From Candidatus Hermodarchaeota archaeon (GTDB lineage: Archaea; Asgardarchaeota; Thorarchaeia; Thorarchaeales; Thorarchaeaceae), in the NCBI GenBank assembly GCA_048885865.1, contig JBHLLF010000014.1:1-64000 (forward strand): a DNA stretch of 64,000 nucleotides, given 5' to 3'. The translations under genes and the position numbers were made by a program. Each line of letters opens with the position of its first letter. Within the stretch, counting starts at the first letter, position 1. The notes beneath the pieces are model-generated. The model was not told the DNA's origin. It was given only the letters and a program-made list of their open reading frames with translations, and did not search any database. Of this stretch, positions 5,186 through 17,693 are shown piece after piece.

Positions 5186-5251
5186 TTCGTCATGGCTCGG
5201 GAGATATTCGGACCTGACTATCTGCCGTACAGGCAAGAGAAACAGATGTAG
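5186..5251 (+). repeat. ACAD 3'-end copy, full length
   Basis: ttcgtcatggctcgggagatattcggacctgactatctgccgtacaggcaagagaaacagatgtag; hairpin GAGAGAGG-gtctt-CCTCTCTC at 5267-5287. Confidence 0.97.
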
Positions 5252-5405
5252 TTTAAAATACAAAGCGAGAGAGGGTCTTCCTCTCTCCTTCACTCTCTCT
5301 TTGTGCCAAGTAGCTGATTTGAAGTTATTCTAATAAAAAGAGATGAAGAGGTGGATAATTACCTCTCCATCCATAAATGTGGTCGTTTGAAACATTGGGT
5401 CATTC

Positions 5406-5795
5406 TTACTGCCTCAAATAAGCGACAATACCAAGAGCTACCTTTGCACAAATTATAATCAAATCGAAGATCATCTGAGATACCGTGGCAGCCAAAAATG
5501 TTGACCCAAGCCATGCTAATATTGAAGCTTCAATAATTATTACCGGGAAGCACAAGCTAAACAAAAATAGATATGCCAATTTGATCTCTTCCCATTCCGT
5601 TTTGCGCAGCATTATAAATGCGTAAAAGGCAGCGACATACAAAATACCCCCAAAAGCTCTTACATGAAATGGATTTGTCCAACCCTCAGTATTCAATGTC
5701 ATATCAAATAGAAAGACAAGCACGGTCCCAAATATGAGGAAAATAACAGCATCCACTATAAGTGCGATTTTTGTAAGTTTTTTAATTTCAGTCAT
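5406..5795 (-). CDS. Small multi-pass membrane protein
   Basis: Hydrophobic ORF resembling 526-924; AT-rich DNA. Confidence 0.75.
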   Translation of the reverse strand: MTEIKKLTKIALIVDAVIFLIFGTVLVFLFDMTLNTEGWTNPFHVRAFGGILYVAAFYAFIMLRKTEWEEIKLAYLFLFSLCFPVIIIEASILAWLGSTFLAATVSQMIFDLIIICAKVALGIVAYLRQ

Positions 5796-6105
5796 TCCAA
5801 AAGTTCCTCTCCTACAAAATGAGCTTAATCTTTGATTATGGACTCAATTTGTGACATCATCAAATGATGAGCTAAAACAAAAGGCTTTCTATTGTTCAGG
5901 ATGCAATTCTTCCAAAAAAAAACACTCGACACAAAGAATCATTCATCGTTTATGTAATTTCGGGGGTATTGTTTCAAAATGAAATGAAAAGATTTCAGAA
6001 AGGTAAAATCCAACACGGGCACTTTGCGTATCCTTGGGTACAACTAAGAAGGATGAGATTAAGAGAAGATTAGCAGAATTATAGATGAGTAATTGATGAG
6101 TTGTT

Positions 6106-6936
6106 TCAAGAGTAGATTATACTTTTTCGTGCTTGTAGGTCTTCCTCAGTGGTGTGTTCCTCTTCCAACTTATGTGGCCAACCCTTCGACGTATCGCTGA
6201 TAGCCAACATGGAATCAGGGCAGTTAGCTACACAGGCTAGACAGACAATACATTTTCCCTTGTCAGCTTCGCCTAATTCGGCTTCCATAGCTCCAGTGGG
6301 GCATGATTCCTCACAGGTGTAACACAGGCTACACTCTGTGCCTCCTCTTGTCGGCAGTTGTGAAACAGTCTTGAATCGAAATGATTCAGCCGAATCAAGC
6401 AACTCTTGGGGATATTTTGTCTTCTCTAGTTCACCTAAAAGGCTCTCATCCTCACCAGTGAATCTTCTGTAGGTCATCTCGACATACTCTTTTGCTACAG
6501 CAAAATCGCGTTCATCAGGACGTCCTTCCATAGCCTTCCAACCGCCAAGATTGAAGGAATGAGCTCCTAGAAACTCTACAGATGACACAACGTGAAAATG
6601 TTGTTTTTCCAAGATCTGTCGAGTTGAATAATGAGCAGGGTGGGTCCCAAAACCTCCATATGTAAAGAACATAGAACATTTTTTGCCCTGACCATTGAGC
6701 GTCCCTAGCCATTCTCTCACAACTCTCGGAGCCCGCCTAGTGTGAACGGGCACTCCAAACACCACGGCTTCATATGAGGCCAAATCAGTTTCTTCTTGTC
6801 TATCCTTATAGGCGGTCACATCAGACATGGTGACTTTTGCTCCCATTTCAGCAAATCTCTCTTCAATGACCTTTGCCATTTTCGCTGTATTTCCTGTTGC
6901 TGAGAAATATGCTATCAAAACGTGCATATTATTCAC
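6106..6936 (-). CDS. EFR1-type flavodoxin-ferredoxin fusion
   Basis: YFSATGNT flavodoxin loop plus two CxxCxxCxxxCP motifs. Confidence 0.9.
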   Translation of the reverse strand: MNNMHVLIAYFSATGNTAKMAKVIEERFAEMGAKVTMSDVTAYKDRQEETDLASYEAVVFGVPVHTRRAPRVVREWLGTLNGQGKKCSMFFTYGGFGTHPAHYSTRQILEKQHFHVVSSVEFLGAHSFNLGGWKAMEGRPDERDFAVAKEYVEMTYRRFTGEDESLLGELEKTKYPQELLDSAESFRFKTVSQLPTRGGTECSLCYTCEESCPTGAMEAELGEADKGKCIVCLACVANCPDSMLAISDTSKGWPHKLEEEHTTEEDLQARKSIIYS

Positions 6937-7903
6937 ACTCCAAGATTTCTTTTACTTCTTTCATCTGATACCCCATCGTAGGGAACAGTTGATCTAGTAT
7001 GAGCAAGAGATTCATGTCACCCTTCACCTTCATCTTACCGCTCATGTAAGCCTGAGTTCCATCGAGCCTACCTTCTGCAACGGCAACCCAATCTTTGCTA
7101 TCAATCTCCACTGATAATTCAGGACTCCTGTCTACACCTCGAACAAGAGTGGCAGTTGAGTCCTTGATATCTATGAAGAACTCACCACTTTGAGGACCAG
7201 TCAATGAAAACTGAAGCACCGCCCTCAAACCTTCAGCAGCATCAGGATTGAATCTTTCAACCATTCCTGAGAAGAGTGCTTCCATAGATATCTGACTCAT
7301 ATCAACTTCTGATTGGAGGGAAGAATCTACATTGAACCCGGATCGCATGTAGAGCTTTGGTACAAATGATGTTGCAGCTGATGCAACTCCAAGAAGTGAG
7401 AAGACGAGTAGATATTTGATGAGGAGGTTGTTGATTAGTGCTGCAATTAGCGTGTTGCTCGCAAAGGCAAGAAAGAAGACCATTGTGATCAACTGGTTTA
7501 TCCGATAGAACTGTGGAGTGGCCCAGACAGACTCTGATACCCTCTGTTTGGCATGCTCTAGTGTGAAGGGGCGTTTGACAGAGAGTGAGATTCCAGTCAT
7601 CAACGCAAGGACCAACCACAGCATAGCGCTGTAAAAGGCAGAAACCACTGCAGACCACCCTGGGAGTAGAAGTAGCAGTGATGAACTGAGGAAGAAACCC
7701 AGGAAGACCAAATCTGTTACTTTGACAACACTGAATCTCCAACATAGAGTTGTGGATACAACTGAGAGGAAGAGGCTAGAGATGATTGCCAACTCATATC
7801 GACCATAGATTGACAACGCTACAAACGGGACAAGAGCAAGATAGCCAAACATGTTCAGCAGTTTGGCTGCGAGTGGGACTTCCTTACTCCATGGTTCACT
7901 CAT
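6929..7903 (-). CDS. Membrane protein with C-terminal SCP2 sterol/lipid-binding domain
   Basis: About six TM segments (KRPFTLEHAK) then AVLQFSL...AYMSGKMKVKGDMNL SCP2 signature. Confidence 0.8.
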   Translation of the reverse strand: MSEPWSKEVPLAAKLLNMFGYLALVPFVALSIYGRYELAIISSLFLSVVSTTLCWRFSVVKVTDLVFLGFFLSSSLLLLLPGWSAVVSAFYSAMLWLVLALMTGISLSVKRPFTLEHAKQRVSESVWATPQFYRINQLITMVFFLAFASNTLIAALINNLLIKYLLVFSLLGVASAATSFVPKLYMRSGFNVDSSLQSEVDMSQISMEALFSGMVERFNPDAAEGLRAVLQFSLTGPQSGEFFIDIKDSTATLVRGVDRSPELSVEIDSKDWVAVAEGRLDGTQAYMSGKMKVKGDMNLLLILDQLFPTMGYQMKEVKEILECE

Positions 7904-16357: not shown

Positions 16358-16972
16358 TTAATCTTCAGCGATTTTCTGGGGTCTTTTCCATTCGCGTCTT
16401 AGTAACGAATATTGACAGTCATCTCTGAATTCCCCTCTAAAGAAGGAGCTCTCTCGAAAGATGCCCTCTTCGAAAAATCCCAATCTTCTTAGGAGGTTCC
16501 TAGAAGCCGAATTAATGGCTGCTGTGTGAGCTTCGATTCTATTCAGTCTGAGAGATTCAAAGCCATAGTCGATTACCGCACTCAGTGCCTCGGCCATGAA
16601 TCCATGGCCCCAATACTTCTTCAGTAAATCATAGCCTATTTCACCACTGAGGTTGTGACTATCGATTTTCTCATAACTGCATGTGCCAATGAAACTTTCA
16701 TCTTCTCTCAATATGATTGCCCAAGCCATTCCATTCTTCTTTTCATAGCGATCAATGAAGTTATTGATGATGCTCTTAGAATCCTCCACATTTTCAAGAG
16801 GCTCCATTCCAATAAGAACAGCTACCTCATCATCAGAGAGATTCTTGAACCAATTCTCTGAATCATCAACCGTTAGTTGGCGTAAAACTAGTCTATTAGT
16901 TTCGAGTATAGGAAAAGGTGAACTTGTAGACATTAAATGCAACTCAATTACTAGGAGAGCTAAATCCGTCAA
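16358..16972 (-). CDS. RimJ/RimL-type GNAT acetyltransferase
   Basis: LETNRLVLR, EIGY...WGHGFMAEA, N.AS..LLRRLGF..EG; likely start ATG 16933. Confidence 0.92.
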   Translation of the reverse strand: MTDLALLVIELHLMSTSSPFPILETNRLVLRQLTVDDSENWFKNLSDDEVAVLIGMEPLENVEDSKSIINNFIDRYEKKNGMAWAIILREDESFIGTCSYEKIDSHNLSGEIGYDLLKKYWGHGFMAEALSAVIDYGFESLRLNRIEAHTAAINSASRNLLRRLGFFEEGIFRESSFFRGEFRDDCQYSLLRREWKRPQKIAED

Positions 16973-17027
16973 TTATATAGATTGGTCTGAATGACTAACC
17001 ATTAATCGATATAGAAACTATCTCTTT

Positions 17028-17069
17028 ATCGTCACGGCACGTGAGATATTTGGACCTGACTATCTGCCT
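17028..17069 (+). repeat. ACAD 3'-end copy, left part plus core
   Basis: atcgtcacggcacgtgagatatttggacctgactatctgcc. Confidence 0.92.
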
Positions 17070-17617
17070 TCAGACATTAGTTGCTTCTCCATCCATACAT
17101 CAAAGCCCCACGGATTCGGAACCCTTCTCATCAGTTTGTATCCTAGCTTCGTGTAGAATCTAATTGCCCACTCTGCACCATTGTCGGTCACCAGTCTTGT
17201 CTTCTTGAGACCTGACTTTCTTGCTAATTGTTCGAGGTGAGAAATCAAGGCAGTTCCTACACCCTCATTCTGATACTTGGGCAAAACATAGACCCAGCGA
17301 ATTCGACCACAGTCTTGATCTTCGGTTCCAAGAGCTGCGACTGCTACCACCTTCTCCTTCTGTCTATGCACATAGAAGGTCATTCTCTCTGAGCATTCAT
17401 CAAACTCTTCTCGCGTAATGATTGGTTCTCTGAAGTACTTCTTAGGGATTATTCGGCTAAAGGCTTCTAAATTGGTCTTGTTAATTACAAGCAGTATCCC
17501 GTAACTGTCTTCAGACAGTGCCTTCTCAATCCTGATACTTGGTTCTTTCAAGCCGTTCCACACTTCTCCATATACAGGATTAGTTTTGAACTGTGAGTTT
17601 CCATCTTTTGCCACCAT
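17060..17617 (-). CDS. GNAT acetyltransferase
   Basis: VYVLPKYQNEGVGTAL, AIRFYTKLGY; stop codon inside a repeat copy. Confidence 0.9.
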   Translation of the reverse strand: MVAKDGNSQFKTNPVYGEVWNGLKEPSIRIEKALSEDSYGILLVINKTNLEAFSRIIPKKYFREPIITREEFDECSERMTFYVHRQKEKVVAVAALGTEDQDCGRIRWVYVLPKYQNEGVGTALISHLEQLARKSGLKKTRLVTDNGAEWAIRFYTKLGYKLMRRVPNPWGFDVWMEKQLMSEGR

Positions 17618-17627
17618 TTATGGTTGA

Positions 17628-17693
17628 TTCGTCGTGGCTCGTGAGATATTCGGACCTGACTATCTGCCGTACAGACAAGAGAAGCAAATGTAG
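17628..17693 (+). repeat. ACAD 3'-end copy, full length
   Basis: ttcgtcgtggctcgtgagatattcggacctgactatctgccgtacagacaagagaagcaaatgtag; downstream tttcaaactcatagagagagcttcatgctccctca resembles the native 3' UTR. Confidence 0.97.

Follow-up and report, generated by a model that had tools for sequence, protein, structure and literature searches.

In the orphan arrays of rhs and cdiA, silent former C-termini lie downstream of the working gene and can be exchanged by recombination, and at the 3′ ends of protein genes such as guaA, rlmH/orfX and fda, tandem islands grow by accretion of integrative and conjugative elements (ICE), integrative and mobilizable elements (IME) and cis-mobilizable elements (CIME). 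Mobile endonuclease open reading frames (mORFs) of fungal mitochondria create hybrid genes, as for atp6 of Allomyces macrogynus and atp6, atp9, cox2 and nad3 of Glomus (PMC3630166), and in Endoconidiophora C-terminal duplications of cob and atp6 stand beside endonuclease ORFs (PMC6279837). The free-standing homing endonucleases of T-even phages include cases of trans or collaborative homing via mobE (PMC2790892), and integrons and clusters of attC sites lacking integron integrases (CALINs) have been described, archaeal ones included (PMC9668308). Here, we analyze a 64,000-nucleotide stretch of a Thorarchaeota genome (the window), in which copies of the last 21 codons and the terminator of an acyl-CoA dehydrogenase (ACAD) gene recur downstream of that gene, with cargo genes between them. 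On balance, these copies are probably native ACAD ends displaced by repeated break repair at one site about 66 nucleotides before the stop codon, with a mobile LAGLIDADG nuclease, seen at this locus in relatives, as the breaker.

The locus shares features with each of these systems and departs from all of them. Like rhs and cdiA, it stores silent, exchangeable former C-termini downstream, but here the tails are interchangeable in function, and variation lies in separate cargo instead of toxin-immunity pairs. As in tandem 3′-end islands, incoming DNA restores the gene end and the old end is pushed outward; here, however, there are no integrase or att arms, the units measure only 0.5-5 kb and the junction is fuzzy, with microhomology. 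Integrons and CALINs offer a further parallel, namely cassettes of one to five genes between co-oriented repeats, newest by the anchor, shared and reordered across genomes. No IntI tyrosine recombinase was found at the array or in the window genome, though, and no attC-type R-box cores around the five full copies; the repeat is coding sequence (a coding tail plus terminator) and cargo lies in both orientations. The ACAD array is not an integron. With the T-even phage enzymes it shares an intergenic nuclease that cuts a neighboring conserved gene of a nuclease-free genome, drives co-conversion of flanking DNA and can move passengers in trans (for ACAD, the cut and the movement in trans being predicted), whereas the phage cases leave no displaced end or array and involve HNH and GIY-YIG enzymes.

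The closest resemblance is to the fungal mORFs: a free-standing LAGLIDADG gene behind its target, a foreign in-frame C-terminus on that target, and the native C-terminus downstream, untranslated and matching relatives synonymously. The nuclease elements of relatives share with mORFs the position beside the target gene, two intact LAGLIDADG motifs with catalytic acidic residues, the replaced gene end and the co-conversion tract, with cleavage as a prediction. The differences are the archaeal chromosome, the 10 or more iterations into a polarised array, the unrelated accessory genes without a nuclease in most units, the frequent HerA-like ATPase, and a mirror array of promoter copies upstream. 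An endonuclease gene or remnant before each displaced end, as in mORFs, was not found: the units of the window and most others hold cargo only, and the window array is thus a derived product rather than a strict member of the mORF class. Searches of the literature on Thorarchaeota integrons, on Asgard cassette hotspots and LAGLIDADG genes, and on archaeal free-standing homing endonucleases returned no published description matching this system; new are its archaeal chromosome setting, its iteration into a two-sided cargo array and its spread over many anchor genes. The anchor gene and the copies behind it are arranged as follows.

2133..3374, plus strand: live ACAD gene, 413 residues, anchor of the array (Pfam Acyl-CoA_dh N/M/1)
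3302..3312, no strand: junction zone (-7..+4), where all full copies start; predicted endonuclease cut region
3309..3374, plus strand: live tail, the repeated unit of the last 21 codons and stop
3390..3430, plus strand: terminator-like hairpin and pyrimidine tract past the ACAD stop
5186..5251, plus strand: full displaced tail, rank 1; five synonymous changes and one non-synonymous at the border (I>F)
9754..9790, plus strand: right-part copy, which gives its stop codon to the winged helix-turn-helix (wHTH) gene 9020-9760
10492..10557, plus strand: full displaced tail; identical peptide, five silent codons
11192..11206, plus strand: 15-nucleotide core remnant of a copy (weak)
12171..12236, plus strand: full displaced tail; four synonymous changes and G>E
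15021..15086, plus strand: full displaced tail; four synonymous changes and M>L
16270..16305, plus strand: right-half copy with terminator; five silent changes in 11 codons
17028..17068, plus strand: left-half copy, whose minus strand gives its stop codon to the GNAT gene 17060-17617
17628..17693, plus strand: full displaced tail; four synonymous changes, I>F at the border and M>V
28930..33246, plus strand: distal copies at 28930, 31532, 31825 and 33208, all strongly decayed and beyond the range covered by the preliminary description; three also occur in genome G015

The five full copies (5186, 10492, 12171, 15021 and 17628) were compared codon by codon with the live tail at 3309-3374. A preliminary description of this DNA had counted 22 synonymous and 5 non-synonymous codon differences, and the recount was exact, with two of the non-synonymous changes at the border codon (I>F in copies 5186 and 17628); its further counts, an identical peptide with 5 silent codons in copy 10492 and 5 silent changes in the 11 codons of the right-half copy 16270, were also reproduced. 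The corresponding ratio of non-synonymous to synonymous differences per site (pN/pS) lies between 0.05 (codons 2-21) and 0.07 (all codons). Several changes are shared among copies, as had been cautioned, and if every derived variant is entered a single time, 12 synonymous and 3 non-synonymous changes remain. This pattern departs from neutral decay (P = 1e-6), so the random placement of substitutions that had been named as grounds for refutation did not hold; it departs as well from a local duplicate whose live partner still evolves under selection (P = 3e-4, or P = 0.002-0.004 with strong transition bias). Across 71 copies from 27 lineages, codon positions 1 and 2 are mostly 90-99% conserved and position 3 varies. 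The original proposal that the copies are once-working ACAD ends stands, with a synonymous excess that persists after shared changes are counted once, and the comparisons support copies that were snapshots of working alleles and probably decayed later.

The left edge of the copies is the most uniform property of the array. A survey across loci yielded 159 copies, 83 of them full with 75 different left flanks, and in all 83 the similarity to ACAD starts within -7..+4 of one codon boundary and never further in. Microhomology of at least 4 nucleotides to the ACAD upstream side is present in 16 of 55 copies, compared with 3% by chance, and behind each full copy lies a hairpin related to the live terminator. 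Copies tend to be more damaged the further out they rank from ACAD (rho 0.39, P = 1e-4, n = 93): of 20 codons, 2.8 are alien at rank 1 and 9.9 at ranks above 8. At locus L199, the first copy and its terminator correspond to the live end of L201, with the same cargo family behind both, and the terminator of the first copy in genome G002 matches the live terminator of the window at 90%. Decay by rank and these two matches bear out the suggestion that old ends were pushed outward.

The idea that each incoming cassette brought a new gene end fared less uniformly: L199 and L201 agree with it, but the copies are not in every case the former end of their resident gene. Copies in many genomes resemble a shared "native" type more than they do the live end of the resident gene, which indicates that cassettes also travel with copies and are reshuffled at them; in several genomes, their distance from the copy consensus is about half that from the live gene. 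Copy 17628 is itself a mosaic, its left part going with the upstream unit and its right part and terminator with the downstream unit. A similar division applies to the expectation that individual copies would match live alleles elsewhere: allele-specific rare peptides of live genes do reappear as copies in other lineages, but among 60 live alleles none was identical to a window copy, the nearest differing at 4-6 of 64 sites. In L101, L113, L114, L115 and L180 the assembly stops at ACAD codons 384-399, on the junction or slightly ahead of it, which is what a polymorphic and repeated gene end would lead one to expect.

The 3′ ACAD tail array is family-wide and present in at least 37 of 86 family genomes, those with three or more tail matches. 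Copies occur at 18 of the 31 Thorarchaeota loci for which 3 kb downstream is present, versus 1 of 49 bacterial and other homologue loci; the nearest relatives of the window ACAD are from Candidatus Thorarchaeota, with orthologues 80-96% identical. The cargo is diverse (653 protein clusters, 490 of them singletons) and lies opposite to the repeats 121 times and in the same direction 77 times. The array is polarised and its units are exchanged between genomes: the GNAT unit followed by the LVIVD unit recurs in G015 and on a 7-kb contig from a separate study (an independent metagenome), with a 17628-type copy preceding LVIVD, and in other samples different cargo is joined at exactly 5187 and 15021. 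The window flavodoxin gene is 96% identical to that of G002, whereas core DNA of the two genomes is 85% identical, which makes the transfer recent and across species. Genes for type I restriction-modification are found repeatedly right after ACAD or after the first copy (L046, L118, L175, L204).

To the clustering of all proteins near ACAD, supplemented by profile search, we owe the candidate for the breaking enzyme, an agent that the preliminary description did not name. A LAGLIDADG gene lies tail-to-tail, directly behind the live ACAD stop, in 11 lineages by clustering and two more by profile search (13 in total), with two additional lineages having such a gene near ACAD at contig ends; among the ACAD loci examined it is never found at a distal rank. 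The nuclease belongs to the monomeric LAGLIDADG enzymes with two motifs (8 of 8 match Pfam LAGLIDADG_3), with a model at a predicted local distance difference test score (pLDDT) of 93, nearest folds I-DmoI, PI-SceI and I-SceI, and both catalytic Asp residues invariant in 41 of 41 nuclease domains. A HerA/FtsK-like ATPase, with DNA transfer or end processing as candidate roles, accompanies the ACAD-linked nuclease six times. Such ATPases, of 860-1040 residues, are also paired with the nuclease at several unrelated targets (L175:13562-16177, L177:4868-7450, L287, L288, L290, L293). In the window genome (G000), C94:4632-6656 is a distant homologue (24%), with no LAGLIDADG gene detected.

Several loci capture the nuclease element at different stages. 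A displaced tail closes it in L175, L176, L177, G024 and L171; 3′ remnants of the nuclease persist in G012, L109 and G076, and L170 and L178 are empty slots that keep the right end of the nuclease-ATPase element. In G076 the deletion runs into the left half of a copy, a route by which right-half copies such as 16270 can arise. L174 (nuclease) and L178 (empty slot) have the same ACAD body (0 of 759 positions differ) but diverge by about 30% starting 82 nucleotides before the junction, and in other close locus pairs divergence sets in 85-130 nucleotides before it; this upstream divergence is a co-conversion tract. A foreign in-frame live end combined with a native end beyond the element is found in L174/L178, L199/L201, G076 and L175-L177. 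The motif AARATCGTC spans the junction in 10 of 30 alleles free of the nuclease and in 0 of 13 adjacent to it (P = 0.02, a post hoc comparison among kin that are not independent), looser junction patterns giving P = 0.07-0.09 for nuclease-linked versus free alleles, and divergent ends of the K-G-Q/K-Q-Q type are carried by 19 of 55 live genes versus 2 of 71 copies.

The wider LAGLIDADG family is present in 43 of 85 relatives, and its clades track the neighboring gene. At oadA, gcvT and carboxyltransferase loci, the nuclease has an intact gene on one side and a displaced piece of that gene on the other; two oadA loci end at the same codon and the gcvT loci also hold cargo genes. In L277-L336, related LAGLIDADG genes stand beside homologues of other conserved genes (gcvT, oadA and an acyl-CoA carboxyltransferase among them), several with displaced 5′ or 3′ pieces and cargo. 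In G042, duplicated repeat-protein genes are interspersed with three LAGLIDADG fragments at L294:7510-13618, close to a tRNA-Lys call; this is a tandem amplification around a nuclease.

Taken as a sequence of events, break repair would proceed from a nuclease that some members of the population carry immediately after ACAD, alone or with the HerA-like ATPase, and that cuts a susceptible ACAD allele. The gene-body end would be repaired on the donor chromosome, copying a new in-frame tail, the terminator and the DNA behind it, with co-conversion extending 80-130 nucleotides into the gene; tail replacement with co-conversion is what the locus pairs above display, and the nuclease cut would be its cause. 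Through a few bases of microhomology or homology to a donor copy, the old tail would then become attached at the distal end of the incoming DNA, the outcome being a displaced repeat with the fixed left edge and the microhomology observed. Later, the nuclease gene would be deleted or replaced, a loss documented by the remnants and empty slots. Nuclease-free cargo would enter at breaks made in trans or through recombination between the gene body and the first copy; trans breaks might occur during cell contact or DNA uptake, or a spent nuclease element might be swapped for the first cassette of a donor. By this route nuclease breaks may also have created the junctions of nuclease-free units, which is the weak step of the account. 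Units would further be shuffled by recombination inside copies, as the changed neighbors document, and the array decays with polarity. Only in-frame tails would be tolerated at the live position, and each copy would therefore be a snapshot of a working allele.

A number of observations weigh against this account. Most units carry cargo only and the live tail in lineages like that of the window is of the presumed susceptible type, which implies that most insertions happened without an active nuclease in cis. The window genome (87% complete) contains no LAGLIDADG gene or remnant, and there is none inside its units; a search with the 41-sequence profile revealed no nuclease on the upstream side of ACAD that could account for the 5′ array, nor does any of the 90 nuclease loci, a limited sample, place a cognate nuclease beside the anchors of the other arrays in the window genome. 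The evidence comes throughout from metagenome assemblies, in which any single contig pair could be chimeric, and the resistance motif was picked after the data had been seen, among alleles whose kinship makes them non-independent. Finally, orthologous displaced copies differ by 5 synonymous and 4 non-synonymous changes (P = 0.05, from few, non-independent pairs probably touched by conversion), a ratio that does not cleanly show neutral change after displacement.

Much of the shuffling could be had without new breaks, if one early duplication, perhaps left by a nuclease, were followed by ordinary homologous recombination in which double crossovers between the ACAD body and the copy of a donor insert cassettes and swap tails, much as in the rhs and cdiA arrays, the nuclease being one more passenger, targeted to this hotspot. 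Units do change neighbors at copies, copies combine parts linked to the upstream and to the downstream unit, the nuclease is absent from most units, and cargo is exchanged between genomes that are 85% identical; divergent tails would likewise be displaced rarely. Recombination of this kind inherits junctions and does not make them, however, and 75 flanks abut the same 11-nucleotide zone with no shared older flank, where erosion would instead give smeared edges. Differences between copies and the resident tail also often amount to 25-40% of sites, and bacterial ACAD homologues are without such arrays (the 1 of 49 loci versus 18 of 31 above). Recombination alone explains the shuffling, not the 75 new junctions in the 11-nucleotide zone, and we consider it an unlikely explanation of the array. 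Local duplication of the resident tail, by target-site duplication or sister-templated repair, with synonymous differences arising from later replacement of the live tail and conversion among copies, could be read from the seven G018 copies that share the live terminator and the C-terminal residue, or from G020 and G024, where copies share lineage-specific residues, and it may describe part of the events. As a general account it is very improbable, because the copies differ synonymously among themselves (the 12:3 unique variants, P = 3e-4), the first copy is identical to its live gene in no locus, and many genomes have copies far removed from their resident allele.

A site-specific integrase of viruses or plasmids, for which the ACAD 3′ end would be attB and an attP would bring the replacement end, with tandem islands shrinking to single genes, would fit the geometry known from islands that restore gene ends, as well as the sharp edge and the polarised order. 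The window genome has no tyrosine or serine recombinase, IS110 or Cas1 (none of PF00589, PF00239, PF02371 or PF01867), 24 of the 37 genomes with at least three tail matches have no tyrosine recombinase, and 57 of 86 family genomes lack tyrosine recombinases altogether, XerA-like genes included. No recombinase is among the recurrent families near ACAD, and no integrase gene or remnant lies beside the junction. There is no arm sequence before the copies and no single fixed crossover point, as the edges spread over -7..+4, giving a fuzzy edge, with no conservation beyond -6; the tail pattern has no match in the viral contigs searched. Such an integrase is improbable, and with no Cas1 in the window genome and no first copy identical to its live gene, the features of casposon- or CRISPR-like target duplication are missing too. 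Translation had also been named as a possible source of the constraint; in this reading, extended here to regulatory RNA, the copies would be kept in frame as 19-residue micro-peptides or act as RNA. An ATG at codon 3 is indeed present in 67 of 83 full copies, and the 5:4 ratio among orthologous copies is not clearly neutral. That ATG is kept no better than in live genes (41 of 55), though, and 9 of 83 full copies have internal stops, while 76 of 159 copies are partial or decayed, so that about half are broken. Damage increases with rank, the unrelated left flanks leave no shared promoter or ribosome site, codons 1-2, ahead of the ATG, are conserved too, and an Rfam scan of window positions 1-50000 gave no match, making this the least probable explanation of all.

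The cargo units of the window, together with the elements upstream of ACAD, are the following.

3487..5142, minus strand: unit 1 cargo, SBBP beta-propeller protein
5406..9760, no strand: cargo of a small membrane protein, a flavodoxin-ferredoxin, two SCP2 proteins, a flavin mononucleotide (FMN) reductase and a wHTH regulator
11210..12088, minus strand: cargo, luciferase-like monooxygenase
12332..14875, minus strand: cargo, Fe alcohol dehydrogenase and esterase
15173..16249, plus strand: cargo, LVIVD repeat protein
16358..16972, minus strand: cargo, GNAT acetyltransferase
17060..17617, minus strand: cargo, GNAT acetyltransferase, start codon 10 nucleotides from the 17628 copy
263..359, plus strand: displaced ACAD promoter and first six codons (5′ array)
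1040..1131, plus strand: displaced ACAD promoter and first four codons (5′ array)
1132..2049, minus strand: 5′ cargo, CAAX (Rce1-like) protease, an exact fit of the unit from junction to promoter

The stop codons of two cargo genes (9758-9760 and 17060-17062) come from truncated copies. A ribonucleotide reductase with an ATP cone lies at 36423-38432, in the distal part of the variable region.

The array is two-sided. In addition to the promoter-and-start copies at 263 and 1040, three more are located on contig C110, and mirror copies of this kind occur in many relatives. They share an outer edge at the promoter, and their inner ends vary, the shortest stopping a few bases beyond the TATA box and the longest about 70 nucleotides inside the gene; with less confidence than for the 3′ copies, we read them as possible mirror scars of long resection on the other side of the break.

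ACAD had at one point been considered the only gene with an end array, an impression that was rejected as an artefact of a 150-residue filter: a repeat-based scan reveals ten or more other short-repeat arrays in the window genome. Co-oriented short-repeat arrays occur on its contigs C9, C13, C19, C20, C21, C23, C27, C34, C42, C54, C56 and C106, and include the ends of tRNA-Gly and tRNA-Tyr and the 3′ end of a small gene (C56:11492-11911). The same process may act genome-wide.

For metagenomics, the repeats disrupt assemblies at array loci, and the ends of core genes differ in history from the gene bodies. A broader reading, which we put forward tentatively as one possibility, is an integrase-free form of gene capture in Thorarchaeota: target-specific LAGLIDADG nucleases would break the ends of core genes, and repair in trans would file accessory genes into polarised arrays with reusable spare gene ends as spacers. 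Such a system would do with homing endonucleases what integrons do with integrases and, active at ten or more loci in each genome, would be a main way in which this lineage gains genes. If this is true, the arrays would supply a dated series of past alleles in which the arms race between nuclease and target could be followed at synonymous sites, and the displaced gene ends would reveal the targets of a large set of monomeric LAGLIDADG enzymes. Selfish nucleases would then be not merely parasites but builders and renewers of accessory-gene arrays in an Asgard lineage, providing a mechanism of gene inflow in relatives of the ancestor of eukaryotes.

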